A DNA stretch of 20,783 nucleotides from a virus, in the UHGV virus genome UHGV-0270338; one strand, 5' to 3'. The number at the start of each line of letters is the position of its first letter. The first letter of the stretch is position 1. The translations under genes and the position numbers were made by a program. A model generated the notes under the pieces. That model was not told the DNA's origin. It searched no databases and saw nothing but the letters and a program-made list of their open reading frames with translations. Positions 1-20,783 of the stretch are shown in pieces.

Positions 1-244
1 CTGATGTCCGGCGGTGCTTTTGCCGTTACGCACCACCCCGTCAGTAGCTGAACAGGAGGGACAGCTGATAGAAACAGAAGCCACTGGAGCACCTCAAAAA
101 CACCATCATACACTAAATCAGTAAGTTGGCAGCATCACCCCCTGATTGTGTTCCCTTCAATTGATCTATTATTTTTATCAGTTATTTAGTATGCTTACCT
201 TATCAATTAAAGTTTCATAATTACAAAATTGGGTCAGTATATAA

Positions 245-1336
245 ATGAATAAAAGAAAAACGCTTTTCAATATACAAGCACTAAGGTTTATTGCTGCAGC
301 CATGGTGGTTTTGGCACATGCCGAACTTGGACAATATGGCATTGGGAATATCGAAATCCTTGCATCTCTGGGAGGATTTGGCGTTATTATATTTTTCATA
401 ATTAGTGGGTTTATTATACCTTACGTAGCATATGGTGGCTCTCAATCAGAAGGAGAATTCAAAATATCTGCAGGGAACTTTTTTATGCGAAGAGTAATAA
501 GAATAATCCCGGTATATGCTTTAATTACCGCCCTTTGCGTTCTATCAGCCTTCATAGTAAAACATTATATATCTTCCCCAACTCCACCTATTGCTTATTG
601 GTGGCCCGAAACAAAAATCAGTCTTCAATGGTATCTTGAGAGTATTACATTTACTCACTGGCATCGCGATGCAATTCTAAGTATAGGTTGGACATTACAA
701 CTTGAATTTTTGTTTTATACTTCTTTTGCATTTTTTATTGCTATCAAATTATCAAGGTTAGAGTATATAGAGATCTTATTTTTAACTATATCCATAGTAG
801 CTAATATTTTAACTTATCAAAATAACAGCATCATATTCGAAATTCTTCCGTTCATGAAAACACTGGCAAGACCAGAAATGGTCGTATTTGCTATGGGTAT
901 GTTTATGTATCGATTATACTTACTGGGCGCTATGTTAAAAAAAACAATTGCGCTTACAATATTAATTTTGTTTATTCCCACATTCTTATTATGTGAATAC
1001 TTTAATATTACAACAAACATGGGGGGGGAATGGCATCGTCCTTTGATATGGGGGTTTTTCGCTTTTTATGGTGTCTGGGCAGCGTTGAGCCTTGAAGGTA
1101 AAATAAAACCGGCTAAACTTATTATTTTCCTCGGTGATGCTTCATATAGTATATATTTGACGCATGGTTTGATTACAGCTTGGGTATCATATATGTTTGT
1201 GTCTTTCGGACTTATTGATTATTCCAATGTATTTCTATATATTGGAATATACTTTATAATAAGTTGTGCGCTTGGCAGCGTCATTCATATGTACATAGAA
1301 AAACCCATCGCAGAATTTTTAAAACGTTTTGTTTGA
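245..1336 (+). CDS. Acyltransferase family 3 integral membrane protein (O-antigen/LPS O-acetyltransferase-like cargo gene)
   Basis: 363 aa; N-terminus LRFIAAAMVVLAHA typical of acyltransferase-3; multiple hydrophobic segments; strongly AT-rich relative to flanking prophage DNA; sits distal to the tail-fibre genes where serotype-conversion cargo genes usually sit. Confidence 0.7.
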   Translation: MNKRKTLFNIQALRFIAAAMVVLAHAELGQYGIGNIEILASLGGFGVIIFFIISGFIIPYVAYGGSQSEGEFKISAGNFFMRRVIRIIPVYALITALCVLSAFIVKHYISSPTPPIAYWWPETKISLQWYLESITFTHWHRDAILSIGWTLQLEFLFYTSFAFFIAIKLSRLEYIEILFLTISIVANILTYQNNSIIFEILPFMKTLARPEMVVFAMGMFMYRLYLLGAMLKKTIALTILILFIPTFLLCEYFNITTNMGGEWHRPLIWGFFAFYGVWAALSLEGKIKPAKLIIFLGDASYSIYLTHGLITAWVSYMFVSFGLIDYSNVFLYIGIYFIISCALGSVIHMYIEKPIAEFLKRFV

Positions 1337-1388: not shown

Positions 1389-1417
1389 TGTGCTTTGAGT
1401 TAAACACTCAAAGCACA
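1389..1417 (-). terminator. Perfect 11-bp stem hairpin (tgtgctttgag / ctcaaagcaca), probable terminator in convergent intergenic region
   Basis: Inverted repeat read directly; the T-rich run is on the minus-strand side, so more likely terminates the Tfa transcript than the acyltransferase. Confidence 0.35.
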
Positions 1418-1564: not shown

Positions 1565-2152
1565 CTATTCTGGTTCGGTGGGCCAGTTGATATTTGGCGC
1601 AGATGAAGTATCTATAGCCTGAATGGCTTTTATGTACTGCACCCACGCAATCAGACTTTCCTTATCCCCATCACTGATGATGTCCAGTCGCAATTCTGTC
1701 TGCCAGAGACTTATTTTCTCCTGCGCTTCAGCCAGTAACGCAGCCTTCTTCTGTTCAGCGGCTTCTACCTCGGCAACGTGCTGCGCGTCAGTATCTGTTA
1801 CCCACTTTTTGCCGTCCCACTTTTGATATGGTCCTGATGGCGCAACAGTTGTGTACCCCTTCCTGACTGGGCCGATATAATCTATAGTGGAAGATGAGGT
1901 ATCATCGGTAGAATATACCGTTTCACCACGATGATCTTCATCCTGTCGCCATCCGGTGCCCGTGAACATAAAAACCTTTCCAGCAACCATTTCACCTGGA
2001 TCAACATCTGTTGAATTACCCGGCATACTGACGCCAGCGTTAATATATTCATCTGACCAGCCAGCATATTCCATGGTCACTGCATCGTAATAAAAACAAC
2101 GAATATCACCGGCCTGCGTTGCCAGACCATTTTCATCAAAGACAGGTTTCAT
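1565..2152 (-). CDS. Phage tail fibre assembly protein (Tfa)
   Basis: 195 aa; EDHRGETVY, YQKWDGKKWV and C-terminal DTSSAPNINWPTEPE motifs match the Tfa family; start overlaps tail fibre stop by 1 nt. Confidence 0.7.
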   Translation of the reverse strand: MKPVFDENGLATQAGDIRCFYYDAVTMEYAGWSDEYINAGVSMPGNSTDVDPGEMVAGKVFMFTGTGWRQDEDHRGETVYSTDDTSSSTIDYIGPVRKGYTTVAPSGPYQKWDGKKWVTDTDAQHVAEVEAAEQKKAALLAEAQEKISLWQTELRLDIISDGDKESLIAWVQYIKAIQAIDTSSAPNINWPTEPE

Positions 2153-3234
2153 TACTTTGCCCTCACCAAGAAATTGAATGCGATGTTGCGCGGTCGGTTC
2201 TCGTTTGCAATTGATACCGATGGGTCTTTTCCAGCGCTGAAGAGAATACTTTGAGCAACAGTGCTTCCGCCTGGCTGGAGGTTCGTTAAGTTTTGTGCCC
2301 CCCCAGAATAAAGCGCACCAGAATTTGTAGTATTCCCAAAATATTGAACAAAACCGACTTCACCAGTGATATTTCGGATGGCATCCACCTGAGTACTCAG
2401 CAATGCCCTTCCTGAATCGACCCCACGACCATCATCCCAGATACGCGGGAATTCGCCTCGAGCTTCGGGAAGTGTAAGTCCAGGGAACACCTGTGCAAGT
2501 TTGGGGTATACCGCAGCAGAAAATGACGCGCCGTTAAATTTTAAAAACACCATGTCAGACCATTCGCTTATGACCGTATTCGGCATTGCTGCGGAGGGCC
2601 AGAAGAATGGGACACCGATAGCTGGCGCACCAGACCCCATCCCCACATCTGCTGGCGTTGGCTTATATTTTTCAGAAAAGAGCTTATACTTCCAAATCGT
2701 AGTGTTGCCGGTTACAGCACGAATGATTGGTGTTGCTCCAGCAGAATTTACTAGCGGAAGATAAATCTGCACTCGTTGTTTTGATACGGAATCATACAAC
2801 AACGTTAGCACCATTCCGTAATCAATCCCAAAATCCGGGTCTGTATTACCGCCGTATGCATAAAAACCAGAACTTGTTGCGCTCGAAAGCAAGTTAATGT
2901 TAGAACCAGCGATATTTATACCGATACCCAGGTCCGTTAAATCAAGGTTTTCGAGAGCCGTTTTCACCGTGCCATCCGATTTGATATCGCCAAATGGATT
3001 TTTGCGGCTTAACAGCAGAGCACGAAGCGCGGTAAGCAGCTGGTCGTGCCGCTCCTTCTCCAGGCTGGCACCGGATGCCTCCACCACGCTGCAAAGCTCT
3101 TCCTGCAACATGTCAAAGTAGTCATCATCCAGATCGGTGGCTGGCGTGCCGGTCTGGGGGTTACCACGGGTAAAACCGTTCTTACCCGCGCCGAACTTAT
3201 CCTTCTGCGCGGTTTTCGTGTCTATACGATGCAT
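2152..3234 (-). CDS. Phage tail fibre protein
   Basis: 360 aa; conserved tail-fibre N-terminal region and C-terminal ...[18 protein letters not shown] typical of side tail fibre tips; immediately upstream of Tfa. Confidence 0.65.
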
Positions 3235-3237: not shown

Positions 3238-3822
3238 TTACTCCGGATATTTAAAAATTACGTAGGTATGCGACGGGCAGAGTTTGTTAAGCACACATTC
3301 GACAACGGTGTCGCCCCAGATACGCAGTGCGGAATCACAGGGATCGCCACATGTCATCCAGGTGGTGTTGGTGGCGGCTGGCATGTTGATCTGCCAGTAA
3401 TACCGCCATTCCGGCGCATTCACCGCGTCAGTACAGGCCGATGAGCAGGTGAACGTGCTTTTGTCGTATCGCGTGATGGTGGCATCTGGTCTGCCCAGGG
3501 CAGCAAGCTGTGCAAGATAAAAATCCTCGTTGATGCCACCCGACAGGTTAACCTTCGCATCCAGCCGTTGCTGGCGCTGGCGAAGGGTCTGTGTCCCTGT
3601 AGGAATACATTCATCCGGCAGGCCGCACAGACACTCCCAGCGGTTTATCAGTTCGGTGGTGGTGCGCGGATCCAGCTCCCGCATCAGGGCATCCGCACGC
3701 TGATGAACACGGGTTAATGACGGTGCCGCACCGGCAATCGCCGGATCGCTGGCTGACCACGCCGGACCGGGCGGCAGCAGTGCCGACAACAGACGGATGT
3801 AATCATCGTTTGTCACGTCCAT
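3238..3822 (-). CDS. YmfQ-like phage tail protein (DUF2313-type)
   Basis: 194 aa; position between baseplate J-like fragment and tail fibre as in e14/Mu-like tail modules. Confidence 0.55.
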
Positions 3823-4208
3823 GAAATCGTCCCCAGAACCGCCAGTTCATTTTTTGCAATGGAGATATTGTCCGCCGGTGCAAGCAACTGATGGCTGTAT
3901 TCCCCGTTCGCACCGGAAATCGCCTCACTGATACGCGATACCTTCAGTTCTCCCTGCGGATAACCATCACGCAGCAGGAACGAACGCAACTCCGCGGTAA
4001 TGGCAGCCCGTATTTCCGGTGTGTCCGGCGTCACGCGGATATGAAAATCCACTTTATGCGCCACCGGCCTGAATACATACAAATCAGAGCCTGCCACCGG
4101 GGCCAGTGGCTCAATGTGTTGTCTTGCCGCCGTTTCCGTTGATTCTTCCGGAATGGGATTAATCAGGTCACTGCTGGCAATCATCACACCGACAGTCCCC
4201 GTTCCCAT
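3813..4208 (-). pseudogene. Baseplate J-like protein, C-terminal fragment only (5'-truncated)
   Basis: 131 aa ORF resembling only the C-terminal part of baseplate J proteins; no upstream baseplate, tube or sheath genes; the upstream space is occupied by opposite-strand genes. Confidence 0.45.
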
Positions 4209-6834: not shown

Positions 6835-7184
6835 TGGAGCCATACAGCCTCACACTCGATGAGGCCTGTCATTTTCTCAAGATATCCAGACCGACTGCCA
6901 TTAACTGGATACGCACAGGGCGTCTTCAGGCAACACGCAAAGATCCCACTAAGAATAAATCTCCTTACCTCACAACACGACAAGCCTGCATTGCGGCTCT
7001 TCAGTCTCCGCTGCATACTGTCCAGGTGAGCGCGGGTGATGGCATAACAGAGGAAAGAAAATGTCACTCTTCCGCAGAGGTGAAATATGGTACGCCAGTT
7101 TCACATTGCCGAACGGTAAAAGATTTAAACAGTCTCTTGGAACAAAGGACAAAAGGCAGGCGACAGAACTCCATGACAAGCTAA
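6834..7184 (+). CDS. xis: Excisionase (Xis), P22-type
   Basis: 116 aa from ATG 6834 (SD gaggtg upstream; TAATG overlap with yfdT stop); HTH-like [26 protein letters not shown]; 3' end overlaps int start as in lambdoid int-xis modules. Confidence 0.6.
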
Positions 7185-8224
7185 AGGCTGAAGCATGGCG
7201 GGTCAGCAAACTTGGTGAAATACCTGATATAACGTTCGAGGAAGCGTGTGTCAGGTGGCTTGAAGAGAAAGCACATAAAAAATCACTGGACGATGACAAA
7301 AGCCGGATCGGATTCTGGCTTCAACATTTCGCAGGAATGCAACTAAGAGACATTACTGAATCAAAAATTTATTCAGCAATGCAGAAAATGACGAACCGGC
7401 GTCATGAGGAAAACTGGAAACTCAGGGCAGAAGCATGCAGAAAAAAAGGGAAACCTGTTCCAGAATACACGCCAAAACCAGCGTCCGTTGCAACGAAGGC
7501 TACGCATCTTTCATTTATAAAGGCCCTACTAAGAGCCGCAGAGCGTGAATGGAAAATGCTGGATAAGGCACCAATTATTAAAGTGCCTCAACCAAAGAAT
7601 AAACGGATCCGCTGGCTGGAGCCCCATGAAGCACAAAGGCTGATTGATGAATGTCCGGAGCCATTAAAGTCTGTTGTTGAATTTGCACTGGCAACAGGCT
7701 TAAGACGCTCGAACATCATCAACCTTGAATGGCAACAAATAGATATGCAGCGCCGGGTGGCATGGATAAACCCGGAAGAGAGTAAATCAAACCGCGCAAT
7801 TGGCGTTGCGCTGAATGATACTGCATGTCGCGTATTGAAAAAACAAATCGGGAATCATCACCGTTGGGTATTTGTGTACAAGGAAAGCTGTACCAAACCA
7901 GACGGAACGAAAGCGCCAACAGTAAGGAAGATGCGGTATGACGCAAACACAGCCTGGAAAGCGGCGCTGAGACGGGCTGGTATTGATGATTTCAGATTTC
8001 ACGACTTGAGACACACCTGGGCAAGTTGGCTGGTTCAAGCCGGAGTCCCGTTGTCAGTTTTACAGGAAATGGGAGGCTGGGAGTCTATCGAAATGGTTCG
8101 TCGATATGCTCACCTTGCACCTAATCACCTTACCGAACACGCACGGCAAATAGACTCGATCCTGAATCCATCGGTCCCAAATTTGTCCCAGTCAAGAAAT
8201 AAGGAAGGTACTAATGATGTGTAA
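7061..8224 (+). CDS. int: Tyrosine integrase, P22-family-like
   Basis: 387 aa; catalytic signature ATGLRRSN (R), FHDLRHTWA (HxxR), VRRYAHL (Y); stop codon 2 nt before the tRNA-Thr-derived att repeat. Confidence 0.85.
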
Positions 8225-8225
8225 C

Positions 8226-8257
8226 TTATTGATTTTAATGGTGCCGATAATAGGAGT
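8226..8257. repeat. att repeat: displaced copy of the tRNA-Thr 3' end (19 nt) plus 11 nt of downstream flank
   Basis: ttattgatttt-aa-tggtgccgataataggagt matches 20628..20662 (ttattgatttt-cttga-tggtgccgataataggagt); the 19-nt part is the reverse complement of the tRNA 3' end ACTCCTATTATCGGCACCA. Confidence 0.85.
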
Positions 8258-8343
8258 AAAACACTCGATTAATCTCGTGTTAATGCCATCACCTACGACC
8301 ATTACTAATTGATTGAATCTTATAGAAAAAATTATCATTTTCT

Positions 8344-9678
8344 ATGCGTTACAATCAATTTTCACATTACAAACGCTCCGACACTTTAGCCGGGGAGTTT
8401 ATGAGATACAAGCCCAATCAATACATAATCTGTGATTCTTACGGTAACTACTATTTACGGATCACGCTGCCTGTGTATATGCAGCCCTTTTTTGAAGGAA
8501 AAAGGACGTTTGTCAGGAGTCTGCACACAAGTAATCTTCGTGTTGCACGTAGAAAGCGTGATCAGATTGCAGATGAATACCATTGCTTACGGGAGAGTGT
8601 TGCCCCTGTAAACAGCACAATAGAGAACACGCTGGAACTGTTACGCAGTAAGGCTAAATACGCCAAAACAGCTACCAGAATGCAAGATACAGCGTCTTCG
8701 TGTCCGTCATTGCTTAAAATTCTTGAAATCTACCTGACAATTAACAGCACGAAGAAGAAGCCAGCCACTTTAGCTAAGGCAAGAAAAGCGGTAGAGATGT
8801 TTCTCTCCTACCGTAAAAAGCCTGATATTGCATTGCAAGATGTAAGCCGCACCACTGTTACAGGCTGGATTGAACACATGCAAAAAACCCTTTCACAACA
8901 ATCAATTGCAAATTATATCAGCCCAATGGCCCAGCTATGGGAGTTAGCTTCATCACGTTACCACGATGCGCCAGAAAGGGCGCTCTCCCCCTGGCGAGGG
9001 CATAGGCTTGATGTGGCACAAAGTAGAGAGAGCTACGAGGCATTTTCTAACAAAGAGCTATTGCAGGTGTTGCAAGTATTTTCCGGTAATTCAGCAGAAA
9101 ACAAAGAAATGATGGCTTTGTGTCTTATCGGTGCTTATACAGGTATGCGGATCAATGAGATAGCAAGTCTCACAATAGACGATGTGAAAGAGATCGAAGG
9201 TGTGCTGTGTTTTGAAATCACACAGGGAAAAACGAAAGCTGCGGCGCGTGTTGTGCCTGTACATAGCCTTATCACTCCGTTGGTGTTGTCGCTGCGTGAA
9301 AAGCCTCATAATGGCTTTTTGTTCTATCACGCCAGCATCACAGAACGTGCTGATGGTAAACGTTCCACGTGGCACACGCAGAGATTTACAAGAGCTAAAC
9401 GAAAGGCTTTAGGGGAAAAGGGAACAGAAAGGAAAGTGTTTCATTCTCTGAGACACGGAGTAGCACAGCTTCTTGATCGAAATCAAATTCCAGAAGACAG
9501 GATCGCCCTTCTCCTGGGCCATACACGCGGCAATACAGAGACATTCCGCACATATAGCAAGAATGCAGCTTCTCCAGTAGAGCTTAAAAAATATATTGAG
9601 CTTCTACGCTACCCTGAAATAGAGAAAGGCTTATCAATCAATAAAAAATCAAATTTAAGGCGTAAAACAACGCCATAG
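8344..9678 (+). CDS. Tyrosine integrase of the second element
   Basis: 444 aa (alternative start ATG 8401 with ggggag SD gives 425 aa); motifs TGMRINEIASL (R), FHSLRHGVAQLL (HxxR), LLGHTRGN...FRTYSK (H, Y); unrelated in sequence to the upstream int. Confidence 0.8.
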   Translation: MRYNQFSHYKRSDTLAGEFMRYKPNQYIICDSYGNYYLRITLPVYMQPFFEGKRTFVRSLHTSNLRVARRKRDQIADEYHCLRESVAPVNSTIENTLELLRSKAKYAKTATRMQDTASSCPSLLKILEIYLTINSTKKKPATLAKARKAVEMFLSYRKKPDIALQDVSRTTVTGWIEHMQKTLSQQSIANYISPMAQLWELASSRYHDAPERALSPWRGHRLDVAQSRESYEAFSNKELLQVLQVFSGNSAENKEMMALCLIGAYTGMRINEIASLTIDDVKEIEGVLCFEITQGKTKAAARVVPVHSLITPLVLSLREKPHNGFLFYHASITERADGKRSTWHTQRFTRAKRKALGEKGTERKVFHSLRHGVAQLLDRNQIPEDRIALLLGHTRGNTETFRTYSKNAASPVELKKYIELLRYPEIEKGLSINKKSNLRRKTTP

Positions 9679-9686
9679 ACGCAATA

Positions 9687-9720
9687 AAGAGGCTTCAACA
9701 TAGATTGGTAGCCTCTTTTA
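9687..9720. terminator. Bidirectional hairpin terminator between int2 and the convergent minus-strand operon
   Basis: aagaggct ... agcctctt 8-bp stem followed by tttta on plus strand and preceded by aataaa. Confidence 0.45.
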
Positions 9721-9759
9721 TAATTACATCGTTACAGAGCGTTTTAGAGGCATTTACGG

Positions 9760-10473
9760 CTATTCCTGTTTAAAGGCAGGAGTAATAGTGTCTTCACCTT
9801 CACTACTTGATTTTTCAGTGTTAACACGTTTTTTCATATTAGCCCCGATGTTCTTAGATGGCTGTGTTTTGATAGCTACAGTGTTTACAGTGCCATAAGA
9901 AACGAGCCTGATCTGCTCAAAGCTAAGATCAAATACTAGGGATTCGCTTGCCTCTTCTGTGTATTCGATGCCTGTTAAAACAACGTTCTCAAAAGTTTTA
10001 TTTTCTGTAACAAGAAGAAAAGGCTGTCTACTGTCCATAATCTGATTCAGATAATCAATCGCTAATGATCTTCTGTTCCCGTTCACCCCTGCACTCTTTA
10101 ACAAGCCAGGATCGCTTTTAATCGGTGTTTCAGTGATCCTTCCTTTAAGAGAAAACTTATTGTTTTTAATTTGAACGTGATCCGATACATTAGCACCATT
10201 TTCTACGGGGTAGCTTGTAACATCTGCCGAACGTCTCACGTTCACATCGTCAACACTGTCAAAGGCCAGTGCCATATAATTTTCATAAACGTCATTACCA
10301 GAAGATGCCAGCCCACTGGTAACAATAGCAAATCCATTTTCTCCTTTTGTTTTATTGGCTTTGCTATTTTCGTTTTTTGTAGAGTTTATATCTTGTTCTG
10401 CTTTGTAAACAGCCTGAACGTGTTGTTCTGGAGTATTTGCTGCACGTATGGTTAAAATCCCGGCGGTCGCCAT
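9760..10473 (-). CDS. Hypothetical protein, last gene of the structural-like operon
   Basis: 237 aa ORF, Ser/Thr/Asn-rich; no recognisable motif. Confidence 0.45.
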   Translation of the reverse strand: MATAGILTIRAANTPEQHVQAVYKAEQDINSTKNENSKANKTKGENGFAIVTSGLASSGNDVYENYMALAFDSVDDVNVRRSADVTSYPVENGANVSDHVQIKNNKFSLKGRITETPIKSDPGLLKSAGVNGNRRSLAIDYLNQIMDSRQPFLLVTENKTFENVVLTGIEYTEEASESLVFDLSFEQIRLVSYGTVNTVAIKTQPSKNIGANMKKRVNTEKSSSEGEDTITPAFKQE

Positions 10474-10506
10474 AATAATAATTTCCTTGTAATGTTATGG
10501 CGGGAA

Positions 10507-12345
10507 TTACCCGCCGTTGGATTGTCCTGATAAGCTGGTTAATGTTAATGATTTCAAGAAGCTATCCCGACTTGCTCTCGCTGTAAAATCCACATAATCG
10601 CTTAATCTGGATGTGTCAGAATTAATAGTAAGAGGAACTTCTGTTACCACTTCAAATGTAGGATTCAGATTAAACACAGGAGATAAATTATAAGCCGGAG
10701 TTGTCATTGCAAGATTATTTAAAGCACCCTGTTTGAGATTGGTTATCGGTGCTTCGCTGACTGACATTTTTACATCTGACACAGAAGAAGCATTATCATC
10801 GAAAAGCAATCCCTTAAGAGTGTTAAAGAAAGAATGACTATTATCAGGTGTAGTTGTTGCAGTGCCAGCGCCTTTATATTGGTCAGGAACGAGCTTAGAA
10901 AGATGCTGTTTCATCCCTTCATTGCTTAATGGCGGTGCATCTCCCATATTTTTCTGAATAGCATCTGTCTTATCATCATTACGATTAAACCAGTTTACAA
11001 TCTTCATAATGGCTTCAAAAAGACTTCCTGACGCTTCTCCTAGCCTTGTAAAATACGGAGTGAGATTAGAAAGGTTTTTCATAAACTCTTCCGTTACTTT
11101 TGGATCGAGAGATTTCATAAAGCCGTCTACGAATGCTACTTGTCTTGCATCAGAAAGCTGTGAAAGCTGTCTGTTTAGTTCTCTGAATTTAACAATAGAG
11201 TCTTGCTGTGTTTCTGTTAGCCATTTTCCAGAGGCTTTTTGCTGATTAATACTTTCTTGTACATCTTTAACGGAACGTTGCCAATATTTTGACGTAAGCA
11301 TCAAATCATCGCCCAGGTCTTCTAAACGTTGTCCAATTTGGGAGTCTGAAAACCCTTTTTTCATCATTCCATTAACAGCCTTAGAAATTAATCCGGCTGG
11401 ATTATCAGCAAATTTTTTAAGGTCGCTCTTGTTAATAACACCGATGTTTAGAAGTTCATTAATAGCGTTATCACCGCCTTTCCATTCGCCGCCTTTACCA
11501 GTTTTTTTATCGACTACATATTCAGCTTCACTATAGGATTTTGCGGCACGTTCCCTAACATCTTTCATCTGATCCAGGTATTTCCTAGCCCCTTGATCAC
11601 CCATCATAGAGTCAACGCCGTTTCTATAGGCCCATTCTGTAATGTTGTACATCTGGTTAACGTCTACACCGCCAAGCCTTGCACGTTGAATTAGCTCACC
11701 TTGTGTCTCTGCGTTAGCGAAACTGTTACTAACAAACTCCGACGCTTTACTAACAGCCATCACGCCAGCAGCCGCTGTAGCGCCTCCAAATAACAGAGCA
11801 CCCATCGTGGCGGAATTCCCTGATCCTCCTCCCTTAACGGGGGCTAATTGAGCTTTTCTGTTGCCATTAATCTTACGTTGTTGCTGTTGTAGGCGTTTCA
11901 TCTGACTATTCATACGTGCAAGCGAGATAGCCCCTTGCTCATATTGTTTTGCTATCTCTCTAGCCTGTGCAATAGCTTTGTATTGTTCCGCTACAGAGAG
12001 GCGGTGCATTGCACTGATAGAGCTTGACACATCAAGGAGTTTTAATTCTGCTTTCTCTTTACGTGCTGCTATTTGTTGCTGTTGCCTTGCCTGTGCTCTT
12101 GCTGCGGCAGCTTGTGCTCTTTGATTTTGTTTTTCGGTTTTAGCTTTCTGTTGAGCAATCTTATCTACTTCACTTTGTGCTTTCTTATAGCCTTTAGTGA
12201 CATTATCAAACCTTAATTTAGCGGGCTTGATGTTTTCTGCGAATTCCTTTAAGCCTGTAATAGAGTCTTTCGCTTTTTTCAAGCTGTCTTTATCTACACT
12301 AAATGTTACTGTGTTCTTAATTTTAGAAGTGTTAATTTCTAACAT
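10507..12345 (-). CDS. Coiled-coil protein with Gly/Ala-rich hydrophobic segment (tape-measure-like or scaffold-like)
   Basis: 612 aa; N-terminal Q/A/K/R-rich helical region (AQAAAARAQARQQQQIAARKEKAELK), then GGGSGNSATMGALLFGGATAAAGVMAV; no Walker A or other catalytic motif seen. Confidence 0.5.
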   Translation of the reverse strand: MLEINTSKIKNTVTFSVDKDSLKKAKDSITGLKEFAENIKPAKLRFDNVTKGYKKAQSEVDKIAQQKAKTEKQNQRAQAAAARAQARQQQQIAARKEKAELKLLDVSSSISAMHRLSVAEQYKAIAQAREIAKQYEQGAISLARMNSQMKRLQQQQRKINGNRKAQLAPVKGGGSGNSATMGALLFGGATAAAGVMAVSKASEFVSNSFANAETQGELIQRARLGGVDVNQMYNITEWAYRNGVDSMMGDQGARKYLDQMKDVRERAAKSYSEAEYVVDKKTGKGGEWKGGDNAINELLNIGVINKSDLKKFADNPAGLISKAVNGMMKKGFSDSQIGQRLEDLGDDLMLTSKYWQRSVKDVQESINQQKASGKWLTETQQDSIVKFRELNRQLSQLSDARQVAFVDGFMKSLDPKVTEEFMKNLSNLTPYFTRLGEASGSLFEAIMKIVNWFNRNDDKTDAIQKNMGDAPPLSNEGMKQHLSKLVPDQYKGAGTATTTPDNSHSFFNTLKGLLFDDNASSVSDVKMSVSEAPITNLKQGALNNLAMTTPAYNLSPVFNLNPTFEVVTEVPLTINSDTSRLSDYVDFTARASRDSFLKSLTLTSLSGQSNGG

Positions 12346-12359
12346 TTAAAATCCCCTTA

Positions 12360-12563
12360 TTAATCATTTTTACCACCTTCTTTACTTAAGAAATGGTGTA
12401 GAGCCTGATCAATACTCTCGTTTAGTCTGAACATACGGGCTTTTACTCCTTCATATGGAACATCTAAGAGAGAACATAGATATTTCAGATTTAACAAGCC
12501 TCTTGAATCATTAGCATCTAAATGTACGTGTACACCATTTTTTGATTTCAAAATCACTTCCAT
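12360..12563 (-). CDS. Hypothetical small protein
   Basis: 67 aa; SD gaggtga upstream of ATG; directly follows an internal terminator. Confidence 0.4.
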   Translation of the reverse strand: MEVILKSKNGVHVHLDANDSRGLLNLKYLCSLLDVPYEGVKARMFRLNESIDQALHHFLSKEGGKND

Positions 12564-12587
12564 ATTTTAATCACCTCTCAAAATTTA

Positions 12588-12632
12588 AAAAATAAATAAA
12601 AAAAAGGCGAAGCGTGAATACACGCCACGCCT
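12588..12632 (-). terminator. Rho-independent terminator immediately after the capsid-like gene
   Basis: Minus-strand RNA forms aggcguggcgug-uauu-cacgcuucgccu followed by an 8-U run (plus-strand A-run 12590..12604). Confidence 0.6.
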
Positions 12633-12649
12633 CTATTACACGTTAAATA

Positions 12650-13678
12650 TTATTTAACAGTGATTTGAACGGAGAAGCCTACACCGTGGTTTACAACCAT
12701 CTGGCTATTCTCTGTAACAACGTTAACAGCATCACCACGAGAAGATTCATAGCTATAGCTGTACACCTCAGCAGGAGCGGCATTAATCAGTTCAAAGGTG
12801 CTGGAAGCAGCCCCGTAGATGTTCTGATATACATTAGAGCCTTTAGCAAACTTCGGAACCGCTACAGCGTCTGCGGTCATATGTGCAAGGTGTAGCGGAT
12901 CTACCAGTTTAATAACATCAATGTTAGTTCCTGGAATAGTGAACGCTGTCACCCCCGGTAGCAGGTCACGACGCTGGTACACAACATTTCCCTCTTCCAG
13001 TGGGCTTACATACTGGAATGCGTTTGCCATACCCGCAGAGAATCGAATTGCAGAGAAGGCTTCCGGCTTACAGAAAACAACAATACGCTCTACAGCAGCC
13101 GCCTGGCTTTGTGCTTTCTCGATAATGTCAGTAGCAATCTGATCAAATTCTTTAAAAATCTTCGTGGTGTCAGTGCTGGAGGCGTTAACAGTGGCTTTCA
13201 TAGGTGTCACATTAAACAGCTTGCCCCACTCGATAAGAACATCATCAGTTTTCGGGGTGTAGGTGCGACCACTAAACAGAGAAGCAGCCAATACGCTCTC
13301 TTTTGTACGCTGATACGCTACGTGGTGTTTAGCAACATAGTCAGCATAGATATCAGTGAGTGTTTCCTGAAAATCAGTGCCAGGCTTACGCTTGCCTTGC
13401 ACGTCCTGCGGTTTGATCAGGTCTTGCCTTAAAAAGTACGGGATTTCAATAAGATATTCTTTACCTTGTTCTCGCTTAGTAACGTTGTGTTCAGAAGAGA
13501 AACGAGAGGTTTCTTTGTTGAACAGAGATTCGTTGCTTTCGACAAGCTGGGAAACAGCTACTTTATGAGATGTAACCCCTACAGAATCCGTAAAATCAAG
13601 AGTAGAGAGCAGATAGTTTCTAGTGCTATGAGCCTGGAAAAGCGGAGCTAAATCAACGTAATCATTACCTAGAATCAT
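12650..13678 (-). CDS. Putative HK97-fold major capsid-like protein
   Basis: 342 aa; segment RIVVFCKPEAFSAI...MANAFQYVSPLEEGN resembles, from memory, the conserved region of podovirus T7 gp10-type capsid proteins; followed by a strong terminator as is typical for a major structural gene; no signal peptide. Confidence 0.45.
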   Translation of the reverse strand: MILGNDYVDLAPLFQAHSTRNYLLSTLDFTDSVGVTSHKVAVSQLVESNESLFNKETSRFSSEHNVTKREQGKEYLIEIPYFLRQDLIKPQDVQGKRKPGTDFQETLTDIYADYVAKHHVAYQRTKESVLAASLFSGRTYTPKTDDVLIEWGKLFNVTPMKATVNASSTDTTKIFKEFDQIATDIIEKAQSQAAAVERIVVFCKPEAFSAIRFSAGMANAFQYVSPLEEGNVVYQRRDLLPGVTAFTIPGTNIDVIKLVDPLHLAHMTADAVAVPKFAKGSNVYQNIYGAASSTFELINAAPAEVYSYSYESSRGDAVNVVTENSQMVVNHGVGFSVQITVK

Positions 13679-13696
13679 TTATTATTATTCCTTTTA

Positions 13697-14059
13697 TTAA
13701 GAAGTGAAAACAGAGTGGAACCCTTCAAGCTGGAAGCCTTTTTTAATTAATGCTGTTTTTGCTGCTTCACTTACAGCATTCAGCGCATCAGCTTTGATGC
13801 AGACAAGGCCAGCATTGCTACGTAGCACATCTACAGGCTTGTTGTCTCCAGCCGTTAAAAACTCACTCATAACAACATAGATATCATCTCCTGATACATA
13901 TTTAGCGCCAGTGCTGGTGATCAAGTCGCCGCATTCAACATCAGCAGGAAGAGAAGCAAAAACCTTGCTTTCTACAGAGGCAAACGGATCAGTACAATAA
14001 CTTACAATATCTGTGAAAGTCTTTCGAACTGGAAATAGAGTGTCTAAATCAATAATCAT
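13697..14059 (-). CDS. Hypothetical protein (possible head accessory, decoration or scaffold protein)
   Basis: 120 aa; immediately upstream of the capsid-like gene, start overlaps stop of preceding ORF. Confidence 0.35.
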   Translation of the reverse strand: MIIDLDTLFPVRKTFTDIVSYCTDPFASVESKVFASLPADVECGDLITSTGAKYVSGDDIYVVMSEFLTAGDNKPVDVLRSNAGLVCIKADALNAVSEAAKTALIKKGFQLEGFHSVFTS

Positions 14060-14268
14060 TTAGTAATCTCCTTAGCTTTTAATTTGATTAATTCATTAAG
14101 GGAAGGTGTAGACGGAGAAGAAGGAGAAAAATATTTTTCAACACAACGTTCCACTTCTTCGACAGAACACCCAGCGTATTTAGCTACCATTTCGGTAATT
14201 TGTGGATTGATCTTTAGCATTTCATCGCGATACTTGATGATTTGCTCTTTATCATTTAAAAACAACAT
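14056..14268 (-). CDS. Hypothetical small protein, first gene of operon B
   Basis: 70 aa; translationally coupled (ATGA overlap) with the next gene. Confidence 0.35.
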   Translation of the reverse strand: MLFLNDKEQIIKYRDEMLKINPQITEMVAKYAGCSVEEVERCVEKYFSPSSPSTPSLNELIKLKAKEITK

Positions 14269-14303
14269 TTATATAAACCTTGTTACCTTGTTTAAAGTAA
14301 GAA

Positions 14304-14323
14304 ATACAACTTTTAAGTTGTAT
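14304..14323. promoter_or_regulatory. Perfect palindrome ATACAACTT-TT-AAGTTGTAT, candidate operator at the operon B promoter
   Basis: 9-bp inverted repeat with 2-bp spacer between the upstream terminator and the first ORF of operon B. Confidence 0.4.
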
Positions 14324-14335
14324 AACGGGCAAAAT

Positions 14336-14365
14336 AAAAGGCAGCATTTAGAGCCGCCTTTTATT
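14336..14365. terminator. Bidirectional hairpin terminator separating operon A from operon B
   Basis: aaaaggcagc-atttaga-gccgcctttt, flanked by A-run and T-run. Confidence 0.5.
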
Positions 14366-14392
14366 AACTTGTACCTATGTAATTACCCTATG

Positions 14393-14420
14393 TTATGCAT
14401 ACTCCAAGATGTATGCATAA
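14393..14420. promoter_or_regulatory. Two copies of palindromic octamer TATGCATA (ttatgcatac ... gtatgcataa), candidate operator
   Basis: Inverted pair of 10-mers, each containing a self-complementary TATGCATA. Confidence 0.35.
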
Positions 14421-14611
14421 CAAAGGAAAAAAGAGGTAATAATGACACTTAAGGAGGAGGAGAAGCGGGGAGCGGAGATTTTACTCCCCTTTAACGACAA
14501 GAAGAATTTTTAATATCGAACCAATAAAGGAAAAATAATCACCCTATATAATTATATTAACATACAATAGATGAAATGTCAAGATATTTTACAACTTTTT
14601 TGTTGCTTTTT

Positions 14612-14974
14612 TTATTCTTCTGTGATAACGGCTAAGCGTTGAGCGAGTTCGATAAGGCCATCTCCCACATAGCGAACATCAGATTCAATATCTTCTATCC
14701 AGTTTGATAGCTCCCATATCTGATCGGCTGTCAGGTATGCGTTCTCACGCTTACAGAGCATCTCTACACGCTTAGAGAGGTGCTCAAAGGCATTTACAGC
14801 TAAATCCCAGTGTTTAAACGCCTCATTAAGTGCCGCTGGCGTATTTTCTTTATATGCATCAAGTTCAGCGCGGTTTAAAGGCAGGAGGTAATCATCCTCA
14901 TAATAATTAATTAGTGAGTAAATTGTATCATACGTGTTTTTGTTCATATTAAAAGTCTCCATAGTGATCATCAT
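14612..14974 (-). CDS. Hypothetical helical protein
   Basis: 120 aa ORF; likely true start at internal ATG (MNKNTYD..., ggag 9 nt upstream). Confidence 0.4.
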   Translation of the reverse strand: MMITMETFNMNKNTYDTIYSLINYYEDDYLLPLNRAELDAYKENTPAALNEAFKHWDLAVNAFEHLSKRVEMLCKRENAYLTADQIWELSNWIEDIESDVRYVGDGLIELAQRLAVITEE

Positions 14975-15356
14975 TATCTAAATGGAATTCAGGAACTAAA
15001 TTATTTAGGCCATTGGTGGCGAGATAACCAACGTAGTGGTTATAGTCTTCAAATCCTAAAATCTGGTATTTGCGTAAATCAGAGCTGTCAACGATATACT
15101 CTTTTCTTTTTCTAGGTTTCCAGAACACGCCAGGTGTTGAAGATAAGATTTCTTGTAATGCGATATATTCATCTCCACAAGGCACAGAGGGAGAATGTTC
15201 TATGATCTCTGTTTTCCATTCGCCAGGGGCGCTATTTTGCTTGGAGAGCGTAACTAGCTCTTTAAAGTCTTTGCGTCTTAGAATAGATTTAGGTTTACTT
15301 AGAAGAGAAGCTGAATCACCGATTTTCTTAACAACGTTGTTTTTTCTTTTTGCCAT
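14949..15356 (-). CDS. Hypothetical protein with basic N-terminus and acidic C-terminus
   Basis: 135 aa; MAKRKNNVVKK N-terminus; ends ...HLDNDDHYGDF. Confidence 0.4.
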   Translation of the reverse strand: MAKRKNNVVKKIGDSASLLSKPKSILRRKDFKELVTLSKQNSAPGEWKTEIIEHSPSVPCGDEYIALQEILSSTPGVFWKPRKRKEYIVDSSDLRKYQILGFEDYNHYVGYLATNGLNNLVPEFHLDNDDHYGDF

Positions 15357-15485
15357 TTATTTTTCCTTTTCTTTTAAAGGAAAACACCCCGAAGTATGTT
15401 TCTAACGTGAGAAAGAACAATAACCAATACATAGCTACTATCATAATAATGTTTTCCTTTTATATTTTAATTACATAGAGAGATT

Positions 15486-15761
15486 TTAGAGAGTGGAATA
15501 GATGAATTCTACTTTACCCAGTCTTTTGAGATTGAATGTAGAGAAAGATAATTCTTTAATCTCTATAACACCGAAATTTGATAGCTGTCTAAGCCAGAAT
15601 TTTAAACCATCTTCAGAGCAAGCTGCTCGATGTAACACATCGCTATATTTTAGCGGTGTTGGCTTTCCTTTATAGAGGTAAGCAAGTGTCTCGTAGATGC
15701 GTTTTCCTGTGTCATTACACTGAATTCTGTCTACTTGATTTTTTACTAAATATTGAATCAT
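15486..15761 (-). CDS. Hypothetical small protein
   Basis: 91 aa ORF in operon A. Confidence 0.4.
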   Translation of the reverse strand: MIQYLVKNQVDRIQCNDTGKRIYETLAYLYKGKPTPLKYSDVLHRAACSEDGLKFWLRQLSNFGVIEIKELSFSTFNLKRLGKVEFIYSTL

Positions 15762-15772
15762 AACCCTCCTTA

Positions 15773-16429
15773 TTAAAATGGAATATCAAAGTCATCATAC
15801 ACATTTGGGTAATGCTTAGAAAAATATGCCTCAATACCATTTGGTAGCTTTAACCTGTGCTTATAGGCTAACGATGTTGCAAATTCTATAAATGATGCTC
15901 CTCCTGTTCTTTTGTCTTTCTTCTGGATGATAAGAGAGGCAAAATTCTCTAACACATCCTCCTCATTATCATTAGCTACCTTTTCACTTGATGAAACAGG
16001 TGTTTCTTCCGTCTCCCACGGTAAAGGCGTATCCCAATCATCATCAAGAACATCAAAAGAAGACTCTTTATTATCTTCCGTAGGGGGAAGCTGATCAGGA
16101 ACAGCTTTAACAGTAGCTTCTTGTTGTGTCTGGGCTTCTTGTCTAGCTTCTTCTTGTGGAATATCTACCACTTGATAGACATTAGAACTTCCTGGTCGTG
16201 CATCTTTTATAATTAATCCCATTTCGAGCAATTTCTTAACCCTTTCCTCTGCTGCTCTTGGTGTTATGCCAAAAACATCGCCTATCTTAGCGTAAGAGGG
16301 AAATGCACGATCAAACCCTTTCAGATAGCAGTAAAGGTTTTTAGCACTATCTGTAAATTTATGCCCGTTTACTTGGCTTATTTTTAGAATCCACATAGGA
16401 ACTTTTACAAATTGTTCTTCATTAATCAT
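15773..16429 (-). CDS. Winged-helix DNA-binding protein with acidic linker and SSB-C-terminal-tip-like tail (candidate replication initiator / host replisome recruiter)
   Basis: 218 aa; N-terminal HTH-like segment (FPSYAKIGDVFGITPRAAEERVKKLLEMGLI); long D/E/Q-rich linker; C-terminus ...YDDFDIPF, close to the E. coli SSB tip DDDIPF. Confidence 0.55.
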   Translation of the reverse strand: MINEEQFVKVPMWILKISQVNGHKFTDSAKNLYCYLKGFDRAFPSYAKIGDVFGITPRAAEERVKKLLEMGLIIKDARPGSSNVYQVVDIPQEEARQEAQTQQEATVKAVPDQLPPTEDNKESSFDVLDDDWDTPLPWETEETPVSSSEKVANDNEEDVLENFASLIIQKKDKRTGGASFIEFATSLAYKHRLKLPNGIEAYFSKHYPNVYDDFDIPF

Positions 16430-16480
16430 TAAAAATCTCCTTATAAATCACGCTTAATGCGCTACTAAAGTGAATGAGGA

Positions 16481-16648
16481 TCACTTACCCTTTTTTTGTT
16501 TGATGTTCTCTGCTGCTTCAGTAATGATTTCTAACATCAAATCACTGACCATAATTTGCCTTTTCTTGGCTTCAGCAAATAAAACCTTGAAGATTTCAGG
16601 GTCAACGTGTAGGTAAGTGCGCGGAATTGGTTTCTTAGTTTCGCTCAT
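16481..16648 (-). CDS. Ribbon-helix-helix (RHH) DNA-binding protein
   Basis: 55 aa from ATG 16648 with excellent SD (aagaggaggag); beta-strand RTYLHV followed by two helices (PEIFKVLFAEAKKRQ, MVSDLMLEIITEA) typical of Arc/CopG/Omega fold. Confidence 0.55.
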   Translation of the reverse strand: MSETKKPIPRTYLHVDPEIFKVLFAEAKKRQIMVSDLMLEIITEAAENIKQKKGK

Positions 16649-16670
16649 AGTTTTCTCCTCCTCTTGTCTA

Positions 16671-16853
16671 TTATTCTTTCTCTGCTTCTTTCTTACGCAG
16701 TTCATCAATAATTTTCAGTGCATCGTCAAAACATTTTTCACGCTCTGGATAACCTCGACTCCTTGCCATATTACGGTTCATTACTACTTGGTGGCGTGTA
16801 AGCTCACCTTTTTTAAATGCCTGGACGACGTGCTCAGATGTAAACCATTTCAT
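16671..16853 (-). CDS. Small hypothetical protein, first gene of operon A (possible regulator or directionality factor)
   Basis: 60 aa; SD aaggag upstream; immediately upstream of the RHH gene. Confidence 0.4.
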   Translation of the reverse strand: MKWFTSEHVVQAFKKGELTRHQVVMNRNMARSRGYPEREKCFDDALKIIDELRKKEAEKE

Positions 16854-17616
16854 AAAAAACTCCTTATTCAGTTAAAAGAAATAAAACACCTTGCAAGCCT
16901 GACGGCTTCAAAGTGCATTGATTTTGATTATTTAGAGAAGAATGTTTTTCTGTCCCTCTAATACCTATTATTACATATAAAGAAACATTTGTCAATACCT
17001 TTTCATAAAAAATCTGATCTTTTTCATGCACTTACATTTTTTCTTAGCTATTCGTGCTCTTCTGTGTAGTGCTATTCTTCATTATCCGCTAAAACGCTCT
17101 AAAACGCGTTCTAACGAGATTTTGATAAAAGCAATACATTGCCTTATCTAATGGCTGTTTAGCTCGCCAGAGGCTTATTTAAGGGGCTTATTTTGTATTT
17201 GTTAGGTATATGAAAAGGTAATGGTAAATATAAAACAGAGAGTCACTTTATAAAACGCTCTGTAAAGACCTGTAGTGAGCTTATTATATGTAGGCAATGC
17301 GTTTCCATTCCCTACCCTGCTTAATGCTGTTAGAGAAGCATTTAGACCCCTTATTTTTAATTACCTAAAGTATCCTCTATACATCTCTGTTATGAAACAC
17401 CTCTGAATCCTTCATAAAACACATTATGACGCAAAGAACACTTTTCTAAGGTGATTCCCTTCCTGAACTCTGTTTCTTGCGTCAGAGAGCTACAGAGAGC
17501 TTATAAAGCTATTATTAATAATAAAGTAGATAAAGTAAGTAAGATAACTAAGATAGATAAGATTAATAAGATCAGAATTCTCTTTCGGTGTCGCCTCTGG
17601 CTTTTCCACCGAAAAC

Positions 17617-17740
17617 AATTACACGACTACAGAATGTGGAAGTGGAATTGTATTGAGGCTTAGTGAAATTACACGAGGAAAGCAGAGTGTAATTGAGCTT
17701 TAGCCGCTCTCTCTTCGAGTAATTACACAACTACAGAGAA
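17617..17740. repeat. Array of AATTACAC-containing repeats, including palindrome AATTACAC-N12-GTGTAATT (17667..17694)
   Basis: aattacacgactacaga (17617) and aattacacaactacaga (17721) are near-identical 17-mers; perfect 8-bp inverted repeat between them. Confidence 0.5.
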
Positions 17741-17995
17741 TAACGAGAGTTATTAAATGTAGGAGGGTAATTAAGAGTTAGAGAGAGTTAACACGTAAGC
17801 AATCAGTATGATTGGTTAGGTGATTACTCTTCTGCGCACAGCGCAATAGTATTTCTTCGTGGGCGTTACCGCCACGATAGTTACACGAAGAAAGTAACGC
17901 TTTGCTTTCGGTGTGAGCGGAACGGGCCAGCCAACGTAGCCCGAAAGGTAGCGGAGTAAGGCTGCTTGCCAGAGAGTGAAGCTAACGCCGGAAGG

Positions 17996-18180
17996 CAAAA
18001 GATCATATAAATAAATATATAATATTATAATTTAATAAGTAATTTAATAAATGATCTAATAGGTAACAGAATTCTGTGGGGGTGTCTAACAGAATTCTGT
18101 TAGGGTGGGGTAACAGAATTTTGTTAGGGTACAAATCTCTTTAAAAGTTAAGATTAACAGAATTCTGTGGGGGTAGCTCA
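17996..18180. promoter_or_regulatory. Origin-like region: roughly 65 bp of almost pure A/T followed by four iterons TAACAGAATT(C/T)TGTnnGGGT
   Basis: Iterons at 18064, 18087, 18111, 18155 (spacing 23, 24, 44 bp); each contains the palindrome ACAGAATTCTGT; no ORF support. Confidence 0.55.
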
Positions 18181-18224
18181 CAGTGACCTACCGTTACTAC
18201 CAATCATCACATAGCACTCACTCT

Positions 18225-18700
18225 GTGTAATGCCTTTCTATGTGTGTGCCATAATCCCCTATATTCCCTGTGTAAATCATAGAATAATGCTCTCTATTCC
18301 CTGTGTAATTCCCTACTAAAAAATCCAATGAAAAATGGCTTCAAAGTGCAATGTTAGCTTTCTTCACTTTTACATCACTTTCGCAAAGCCTTGTGTAATG
18401 CGGTTTACAGAGCACCATCAGAAATTGTTGGCTAAAAATTGTTCTGCTTGTTTCTGAACGAGTTTTCTCGTTTGTGCAAATTTTAAAATTTATTTTGTTT
18501 TTACAGCCTTATTTCGTGTAATGCGTGGCATAGCAAGCCCTTTTCTTGTGTTGTCAAGACATTTGGCAACGTTCAAACATCTGTTTAGAAATGCCAAATT
18601 GTTGATCTAACAAATAAACCTGTATAAACAGAACACCATTTAATCTATCCCCCTGTGTATCCATTAGGCATACCAAATGAATACATCTAAATCGTGTAAT
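18225..18700. repeat. Dispersed same-orientation GTGTAAT heptad motifs (about 6 copies) upstream of the serine recombinase gene
   Basis: Copies near 18225, 18269, 18302, 18392, 18517, 18694; two share the longer context tattccctgtgtaa(a)t; opposite orientation to the ATTACAC copies left of the iterons. Confidence 0.45.
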
Positions 18701-18793
18701 ATTCCGTACCCATAAGGCTTGAAACAGACCAAATGAATACGATATACTCATTTGCATTGAAGTAGTGCCAAATCGATACATTAAGAGGATTTT

Positions 18794-19333
18794 ATGAGCA
18801 ATATCGGCTATAAGCGTGTGAGCACTGTAGATCAGAACACTGATCGCCAGCTTGCAGGAGTAACGCTTGATAAAGTCTTTGAAGATAAGCTGTCAGGTAA
18901 AGACACTAACCGTCCAGGATTGCAGGCGTGTTTATCCTATCTGAGAGAAGGCGACACCTTACACGTGCACTCTCTCGACCGTTTAGGACGTAACACCTTA
19001 GACATCCTTGCTTTAGTTGAACAACTTAATAATCGAGGTGTGATTGTTCGATTTCACAAAGAAGGAATCATTGCAGACATTACAAGCGCGATGGGAAAAA
19101 TGATGCTTACTATGTTGTCGGCAGTTGCAACGTGTGAACGTGAACTGATGTTAGAGCGTAAACGAGAAGCGCAAGCCGTCAATCCTACAAAGCGTGGTAA
19201 AGGTAAAGCAGTAGATAGGGAAGGTATAAAGAAAGCCCTTTCCGCTGGCGTGTCAGTGCGTAAAACCGCCGAGAGCTTTAATGTTGCTCCTTCAACGGTG
19301 CAACGTATCAAGAAGGAAGAAGAGGAGGCGTAA
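18794..19333 (+). CDS. Small serine recombinase (resolvase/invertase family)
   Basis: 179 aa; N-terminal YKRVSTVDQNTDRQ with catalytic Ser; GKMMLTMLSAVATCERE resolvase core; C-terminal HTH (VSVRKTAESFNVAPSTVQRIKK). Confidence 0.8.
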   Translation: MSNIGYKRVSTVDQNTDRQLAGVTLDKVFEDKLSGKDTNRPGLQACLSYLREGDTLHVHSLDRLGRNTLDILALVEQLNNRGVIVRFHKEGIIADITSAMGKMMLTMLSAVATCERELMLERKREAQAVNPTKRGKGKAVDREGIKKALSAGVSVRKTAESFNVAPSTVQRIKKEEEEA

Positions 19334-19349
19334 TGCCTCCTTGATATTT
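19324..19349 (+). terminator. Hairpin terminator overlapping the recombinase stop codon
   Basis: ggaggc-gtaat-gcctcc followed by ttgatattt. Confidence 0.4.
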
Positions 19350-19660
19350 GGGGATTCTGGATTTTCCAGATCGGGGGGCGCTGATCTTCGCGTTAAACAT
19401 TGATCACGTTTGCGCCGATTTCAGATAAAAAGGCAGCTATTAAGCAATACGTAACTTTTACAATTAGTGAAATTATCTAAAACACAAGTTATATAGATGA
19501 GAAAATGAAATATTATCTTGAACAAATCAAACAAAACAACACATCATCTTGTTGACACCATGCAAAGTGAATAGTAAGCTATTATATGTGAAAATTTGCA
19601 CATTGCATGCAATAAAAAATAAATGATACCTTGTTGTTGTTAAATCAATAGGGGGTATCT

Positions 19661-19819: not shown

Positions 19820-19885
19820 TAATTTCACTATCAGGCGCACAAACACATCTTTGATTGCTGGATGTGTTATGCGCCTACTGGTGAT

Positions 19886-20627: not shown

Positions 20628-20662
20628 TTATTGATTTTCTTGATGGTGCCGATAATAGGAGT
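20628..20662. repeat. att repeat at the intact tRNA-Thr 3' end (right boundary of the second element)
   Basis: Matches 8226..8257 apart from a 2 vs 5 nt spacer difference. Confidence 0.85.
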
Positions 20663-20719: not shown

Positions 20720-20783
20720 CCTGAAAGGACATGTTCACGAACGTGAATCACGGTGGACAAGGTTAAAACTAACCGGGCGATGC

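Follow-up and report, generated by a model that had tools for sequence, protein, structure and literature searches.

A prophage-borne membrane O-acyltransferase gene of Escherichia coli carries a G8 tract that is an indel hot spot and plausibly a low-frequency ON/OFF switch

The window analysed here, a stretch of 20,783 nt, is identical to sequence in the 4.84-Mb E. coli chromosome CM127689.1. Located near its left end is a prophage remnant in which a gene for an AT3 O-acyltransferase faces a tail fibre assembly gene, with tail fibre and baseplate genes beyond it (Table 1). The baseplate J fragment is the point at which the prophage is cut off; the same gene is full length in two other E. coli genomes, L001 and L002. 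The hairpin between the convergent genes is terminator-like on the minus strand. A second mobile element occupies positions 7061-20783 and includes, besides the genes listed in Table 1, several ORFs to which no function was assigned. From about 8.1 kb to the end of the window, sequence of ~95% identity was found in many E. coli genomes, and this element may be a capsid-encoding phage satellite.

Table 1. Features of the window; positions are counted from its first nucleotide.
Feature	Position	Strand	Basis
IS1 copy, end part, with terminal inverted repeat ending ...GGCAGCATCACC	1..139		matches in E. coli genomes
Upstream region common to all related loci, with one GATC	140..244	+	locus comparison
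AT3 integral membrane O-acyltransferase, prophage cargo gene, 363 aa, ATG start	245..1336	+	PF01757, PHROG 3333
A8 tract, TTA AAA AAA ACA = L231 K K T, in frame	937..944	+	
G8 tract, ATG GGG GGG GAA TGG = M259 G G E W, in frame	1021..1028	+	
Perfect 12-bp-stem hairpin between the convergent acyltransferase and tail fibre assembly genes	1389..1417		
Tail fibre assembly protein (Caudo_TAP)	1565..2152	-	PF02413, E 5e-33; so annotated in six E. coli genomes
Tail fibre protein	2152..3234	-	PHROG 1858/3100, E 4.5e-74 and 8e-64
Mu gp48-like baseplate protein (YmfQ family)	3238..3822	-	PF10076, E 9e-26
Baseplate J, C-terminal 131-aa fragment	3813..4208	-	PF04865, profile positions 158-255 only
Tyrosine integrases (two), second mobile element	7061-8224, 8344-9678		
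Dit-like tail protein, second mobile element	9760-10473	-	
Phage_cap_E capsid protein, second mobile element	12650-13678	-	
Serine resolvase, second mobile element	18794-19333		

The acyltransferase matched the PF01757 profile (Acyl_transf_3) with an E value of 8e-26 and a score of 91.3 bits against a gathering cut-off of 31. Residues 9-347 aligned to profile positions 3-324 of 326, so that the whole protein is covered, and the match of the 363-aa protein to PHROG 3333, 'O-acetyltransferase', reached an E value of 9e-82. The AT3 motifs are present as R14-X10-H25, F50-F-I-I-S-G55 and R83-V-I-R86, and R14, H25, F50, F51, S54, G55, R83 and R86 were invariant in a 78-sequence alignment of homologues. 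Functional AT3 carbohydrate acetyltransferases are defined by an R/K-X10-H motif in helix 1 together with FFXISG and RXXR (PMC7448272). The AlphaFold model of the protein (pLDDT 95.1, pTM 0.93) contained ten long helices in its 363 residues and no SGNH or other extra domain, which is the stand-alone AT3-only type. A PDB sequence search and a fold search with the acyltransferase matched no solved AT3 structure.

The original prediction had placed the gene in a family that includes O-antigen acetylases of temperate phages, and the PF01757 and PHROG 3333 matches bear this out. When the protein was compared by tblastn with 50,697 phage records at a cut-off of E 1e-5, Sf6 Oac was not detected, nor was recognisable homology to any characterised O-antigen acetylase; the sole match was to a Psychrobacillus phage, at 26% identity. 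Kinship with the O-antigen acetylases therefore holds at the family level only. Similarity to PHROG 6705, 'O-antigen acetylase', was likewise of family level (E 1e-9, residues 9-104 only), and the phage GenBank collection contained no DNA match to the gene. A protein-profile scan of species-representative genomes returned only relatives of ≤38% identity, mostly from soil- or plant-associated Proteobacteria such as Rhizobium and Pseudomonas, which places the close relatives among accessory or prophage genes. The ExoZ-like names found among the relatives came from the protein search. In public data, alleles of the gene were carried by E. coli, Citrobacter and Salmonella. Judged from its sequence, the 363-aa protein most likely O-acetylates a surface polysaccharide, and because of the position of the gene the O-antigen would be the leading candidate for the acceptor. 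O-acetylation of the O-antigen or capsule alters serotype, vaccine epitopes and phage receptors.

The GC content of the acyltransferase gene is 34% and that of the tail genes at 1.5-4.2 kb is 47-57%, as expected from the earlier statement that the gene is the more AT-rich. Its proposed origin as separately acquired cargo is upheld by this AT-richness together with a slot between integrase and tail fibre. The gene was present in 6 of 5,426 complete E. coli genomes, at 99.6-99.9% identity. Gene order was read over the full flank in L001-L003, with 1-kb flanks only for the other three complete genomes. In L001 and L003 the order is yfdC, tRNA-Arg (argW), intS, a decayed HTH gene and the acyltransferase, followed by the convergent tail fibre assembly gene, the tail fibre gene and the baseplate genes. 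L002 carries the same prophage module with a different left flank. The slot between the integrase/attachment site and the tail fibre, which the gene occupies in L001 and L003, is the usual place of serotype-converting cargo; in the window the integrase side is taken by IS1. The IntS/argW recombination module is common to Sf6, HK620 and CUS-3 (PMC2951348).

The module formed by the acyltransferase and tail fibre assembly genes is 99.7-99.9% identical between L001/L002 and L003, and its partners are unrelated, being a Mu-like gp45-48 baseplate in L001/L002 versus one of the DUF2612 type in L003. One module thus stands on two unrelated baseplates, which means that recombination carries the cargo from one prophage backbone to another. 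Orthologues of 57-65% identity adjoin tailspikes of other prophages. Those of 57-61% identity, from E. coli and Proteus (P0004, P0006 and P0007; L012-L016, L114 and L115), are convergent with the gene for an 860-aa tailspike that consists of Tail_spike_N and a GDSL/SGNH esterase domain, and the P0004 copies also lie at argW-intS. The 65% orthologue adjoins a pectate-lyase-type tailspike and a lysis cassette instead. In the neighbourhoods of the 57-61% orthologues, a membrane O-acyltransferase is thus found time and again beside a probable deacetylating tailspike.

The IS1 sequence of the window had thousands of matches among E. coli genomes. The element is inserted 105 nt before the start codon of the acyltransferase gene and replaces the integrase-side flank; from window position 140 onward the sequence aligns with loci that have no IS1. 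Most copies of the locus are without IS1, and the insertion was polymorphic in otherwise identical remnants (present in L018 and L021, absent from L017, L019 and L020). The same remnant, with or without IS1, was found again in many assemblies, and the acyltransferase ORF was intact in all of them, which suggests that the cargo is retained while the phage decays. No consensus sigma-70 promoter was detected in the region 140..244.

A G8 and an A8 tract had been predicted within the coding sequence, and both coordinates and codons confirmed that they are present and in frame (Table 1). The 20.8-kb window held no other G or C run of eight or more, and two A runs of that length including the one in the gene. 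Mononucleotide shuffling of the gene gave a G8 or C8 run in 0.1% of cases, and shuffling that preserved both the protein and the codon usage of the gene gave one in 5.1%; the latter figure reflects the fact that Met-Gly-Gly-Glu requires only two GGG codons. For A8, the corresponding figures were 22% and 43%. Over the whole window G8 was expected 0.12 times, and at least one such run was found in 9 of 100 shuffles. The G8 tract is mildly unusual, and the A8 tract is at chance expectation. The tract is written GGG GGG in a gene in which GGG is no more common than GGT or GGA.

In the AlphaFold model both tracts encode loops, A8 between helices 6 and 7 and G8 between helices 7 and 8. The length of either tract sets the reading frame, and any change that is not a multiple of three truncates the protein at 239-283 aa, with the shifted frames ending after 5-24 codons. 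The predicted products were 239 aa for A7, 266 aa for G7, 283 aa for G9 and 282 aa for G6. By the model, the G6, G7 and G9 products are without helices 8-10 and the A7 product is without helices 7-10. Truncation removes G297, S300, Y304, L305, H307 and E352, which are invariant or near-invariant, and the truncated forms would be expected to have lost activity.

Expression of the gene could in principle be switched by another route, either through Dam/OxyR as in Salmonella gtr/oafB, through the upstream IS1, or through transcriptional or ribosomal slippage on A_AAA_AAA. Phage-borne O-antigen modifiers of Salmonella are phase variable via GATC/OxyR sites (PMC9558356). The 105-nt conserved upstream region contains a single GATC, and paired GATC sites in OxyR half-sites of the gtr/oafB type were not found there; gtr-like epigenetic switching was thus not supported. 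IS1 does lie close upstream in the window but is missing from most copies of the locus. The codons TTA AAA AAA at 935-943 form an in-frame slippery heptamer, A_AAA_AAA, but a -1 shift at this site leads only to a 250-aa dead-end product. Programmed -1 frameshifting was rejected, as the shifted frame ends after 17 codons and yields no conserved product. Taken together, switching by any of these routes is very improbable. Through transcriptional slippage on A8, a certain amount of full-length protein could still be made from A7 alleles.

Tract lengths were G8/A8 in all 19 copies that could be read as DNA, namely the window, six complete genomes, eight contigs with the window allele and four IMG/VR contigs. 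Eight of these copies were retrieved by exact full-length protein match and are necessarily in frame, which makes the uniformity of the 19 a weak test. The flexible-length pattern ACAACAAACAT N{5,12} AATGGCATCGTCC identified the four copies in IMG/VR, all of them G8, and gave no matches in JGI metagenome contigs. Two of the copies, L111 and L112, lie on two viral contigs of a single IMG/VR genome (2526164662) and contain additional single-base indels outside the tracts, with G8 and A8 unchanged; these indels probably reflect a low-quality assembly.

Copies of the gene also differ at codon 241 (window position 966), which is tri-allelic, with ATT (Ile), ACT (Thr) or AGT (Ser) among L001-L006 and other copies and Met in the Salmonella allele (P0127). 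Copies that differ at this codon otherwise differ at only 1-3 sites. Residue 241 belongs to helix 7 and is flanked by the two tracts; diversifying selection may act on the codon, or the residue may determine specificity.

In a protein cluster built at 90% identity, one of the 142 members was a 266-aa protein ending ...NMGGNGIVL, which is exactly the product predicted for G7. The predicted products of tract variants were generated on backgrounds with I, T or S at residue 241 and looked up as exact matches among ~15 billion proteins. The G7 product was found in 6 contigs on the T241 background and 2 on S241, the G9 product in 4 on T241 and 1 on S241, the G6 product in 1 on T241, and the A7 product in 4. 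This amounts to 18 contigs with six distinct alleles on at least two allelic backgrounds, counted as protein matches and not as reads. Absent from the same ~15 billion proteins were both variants of the A9 product, G10 on T241, and G7 and G9 on I241, the background of the window itself. In-frame alleles accounted for 251 (T241), 40 (I241), 23 (Citrobacter), 7, 4 and 4 contigs, or ~330 altogether. OFF alleles therefore make up ~5% of contigs, with G-tract variants on T241 at 11 of 262, and ~95% of copies are in frame.

As controls, ten one-base frameshift products at six shorter runs (G5, two T5, two T6 and A5) were looked up in the same way on the commonest background, and none of the ten was found. 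Set against the 18 contigs with tract variants, this result indicates that indels are concentrated at the two 8-mers, chiefly at G8, and that these tracts are, as judged from exact protein matches, genuine hot spots for indels. G-tract indels run in both directions. The expectation that the tracts are prone to slip was thereby borne out, and the G6, G7, G9 and A7 alleles indicate at the protein level that tract length is not invariant across public isolates, invariance being the first outcome by which the original prediction would have fallen.

Such variants might instead be sequencing or assembly errors, or mutations of laboratory passage, in which case the tracts would be irrelevant and the gene constitutive cargo. 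Every copy that could be read as DNA was G8/A8, and homopolymers are error-prone on some sequencing platforms, including 454, Ion Torrent and Nanopore. Of the variant accessions, EHW95390.1 presumably comes from a 454-era genome set and XIX57913.1 lies on a contig of 5.28 Mb, possibly assembled from long reads alone; database copies with stray indels exist. Some of the variants may accordingly be homopolymer errors, or one isolate assembled by several pipelines. Against error as a general explanation, the variants came from several sources and pipelines (NCBI, ENA and Logan), comprised six distinct alleles and lay on contigs of up to 500 kb. Pure error should also strike T6 runs, yet the controls gave 0/10. 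Like tracts are experimentally unstable in other mismatch-repair-proficient bacteria (PMC3441752, PMC10330708). Error or passage as the source of the length variants is improbable on this evidence.

To place the tracts in the history of the gene, orthologues were compared at the same codons. The 86% orthologue has ATG GGA GGT or ATG GGG GGT at the G8 codons and TTA AAG AAA at the A8 site, the 65% orthologue keeps A8 and has only G6, and both tracts are missing from the orthologues of E. coli (60%) and Proteus (57%). The original prediction had held that orthologues lacking the tracts would speak against it, and on this point it fared badly, in that G8 is missing from relatives at ≤86% identity. 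The codons of the 86% orthologue imply a stepwise synonymous path from GGA GGT through GGG GGT to GGG GGG, and by this comparison G8 seems to have arisen recently as a side effect of two synonymous changes in Gly codons, and not to be an old conserved device. In E. coli the indel rate grows exponentially as runs lengthen, and G.C runs of 8 bp stand out in its genome as outliers and hot spots (PMC8510543).

These findings bear on the view that G8 is a selected contingency locus, maintained for frequent and reversible switching of O-acetylation in evasion of phages or immunity, in the manner of neuO on CUS-3 or of the AT3 gene oafA of H. influenzae. In its favour, two backgrounds carry variants in both directions, the variants cluster at the tracts, and the tracts encode loops, a setting that leaves codon choice free; GGG GGG was chosen though GGT and GGA are no rarer in the gene. 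The class and location of the gene also fit known phase-variable surface modifiers (PMC3046976, PMC2951348, PMC9558356). Speaking against it are the ~95% of copies at one length, without the broad length spectrum typical of contingency loci, the absence of G8 from the 86%, 65%, 60% and 57% relatives, and the slow rate expected of an 8-mer in mismatch-repair-proficient E. coli. In such a host, 8-mer switching would be far slower than in Neisseria or Campylobacter, and the conventional threshold for high-frequency reversible switching is above ~1e-5 per generation. These data gave no second, independent sign of selection for mutability. The evidence leans against a selected device, and we regard a contingency locus of this kind as rather unlikely.

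The broader notion of a homopolymer-driven mobile contingency locus, in which reversible G8 slippage toggles the AT3 enzyme and leaves a mixture of acetylated and non-acetylated surface polysaccharide, is possible but doubtful. If it were true, phage receptor and antigen would both be varied by G8 toggling, and E. coli, in which repeat-mediated phase variation is considered rare, would have a second 'mobile contingency locus' with a mechanism distinct from that of neuO. If the tract is merely an accidental hot spot, the practical lesson is that database entries for 'acyltransferases' of 266 and 283 aa represent frameshifted versions of the gene.

The reading we favour, with moderate confidence, is that the gene is lysogenic-conversion cargo, a stand-alone AT3 enzyme borne by an argW prophage, whose G8 tract is a slippage hot spot that gives rise to a heritable OFF minority. 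An argW-integrating prophage would have delivered the acyltransferase gene, which would have stayed intact while the prophage of the window decayed to a tail-fibre stub bounded by IS1. Replication slippage at G8, and to a lesser extent at A8, would occur in a segment that codes for a loop. A change of one base, or the loss of two, would shift the frame and bring in a stop before helices 8-10; the truncated enzyme would constitute a heritable OFF state, and a second slip could restore the frame. Populations would then contain a minority of OFF cells or lineages, corresponding to the ~5% seen among sequenced isolates, beside a favoured ON state. It is plausible, then, that G8 acts as a low-frequency mutational ON/OFF switch for surface-sugar modification. 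The proposal that slippage switches the gene on and off consequently stands in part: natural frame-shifting alleles occur at the tracts, but most copies are in frame at G8/A8 and A8 does not exceed chance expectation.

Were G8 to toggle the acetylase, E. coli, Citrobacter and Salmonella carriers would be phenotypically mixed, and such a mixture would be missed by serotyping and by phage-therapy matching. It would also mean that modest homopolymers can be switches in mismatch-repair-proficient enterobacteria.

Among known systems, several share either the enzyme or the type of repeat. Sf6 Oac and other stand-alone AT3 acetylases resemble the present protein in their length of ~330-360 aa, their 10 helices and their FFXISG and RXXR motifs, and Sf6 Oac is likewise phage-borne and adjoins integrase and tail genes; repeat-tract switching of Sf6 Oac is not described in the literature consulted (review PMC9558356). 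The oafA gene of Haemophilus influenzae is also an AT3 acyltransferase gene with repeats inside the gene, and its product acts on surface glycans and is expressed in a phase-variable manner through those repeats (PMC9558356). It differs in having tetranucleotide repeats and in belonging to a host-restricted mucosal pathogen with many contingency loci. The oafA product and PglI are AT3-SGNH fusions, unlike the AT3-only protein described here. In Neisseria, lot3 and pglI are further AT3 genes and are phase variable through poly-G tracts.

Within E. coli, the neuO gene of prophage CUS-3 in K1 strains offers a prophage-borne O-acetyltransferase with slippage at a tract inside the coding sequence (PMC3046976). 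CUS-3 has an IntS-type recombination module in common with the argW prophage KplE1 (PMC2951348). NeuO differs from the present enzyme in being a soluble left-handed beta-helix protein and not an AT3, and it acetylates the K1 capsule. Switching is of high frequency and depends on a 7-nt unit, repeated 2-93 times, at the 5' end of the gene.

In V. cholerae O1, the homopolymers of wbeL (A8) and manA (A9) act as switches, and 2 of 37 strains, ~5%, were OFF; both are LPS O-antigen genes in which switching is linked to a change of phage receptor (Seed et al. 2012, PMC3441752). As in the present gene, an in-frame homopolymer of 8-9 nt lies in a mismatch-repair-proficient gamma-proteobacterium, a one-base slip truncates the product, and OFF alleles stand at ~5%. 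The V. cholerae genes are chromosomal biosynthesis genes and their tracts are conserved in all O1 strains, whereas the tract described here belongs to prophage cargo and to one lineage. Phage resistance was demonstrated for wbeL and manA, and reversion for manA only. The mga gene of Streptococcus pyogenes carries a C8 tract that was at C8 in 150 of 158 genomes and at 7 or 6 in a few per cent (PMC10330708). It shares with the acyltransferase gene an 8-mer G.C tract that is ~95% at length 8 and confined to one gene lineage. Unlike the acyltransferase gene, mga is a regulator gene of a Gram-positive organism; its reversibility was demonstrated in mice, and its 6-mer allele is functional. Since 8-mers with similar OFF frequencies have been accepted as switches (PMC3441752, PMC10330708), the ~5% of OFF alleles observed here resembles published cases. 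The systems closest in working principle are the 8-mer switches of V. cholerae and mga and, within E. coli, neuO.
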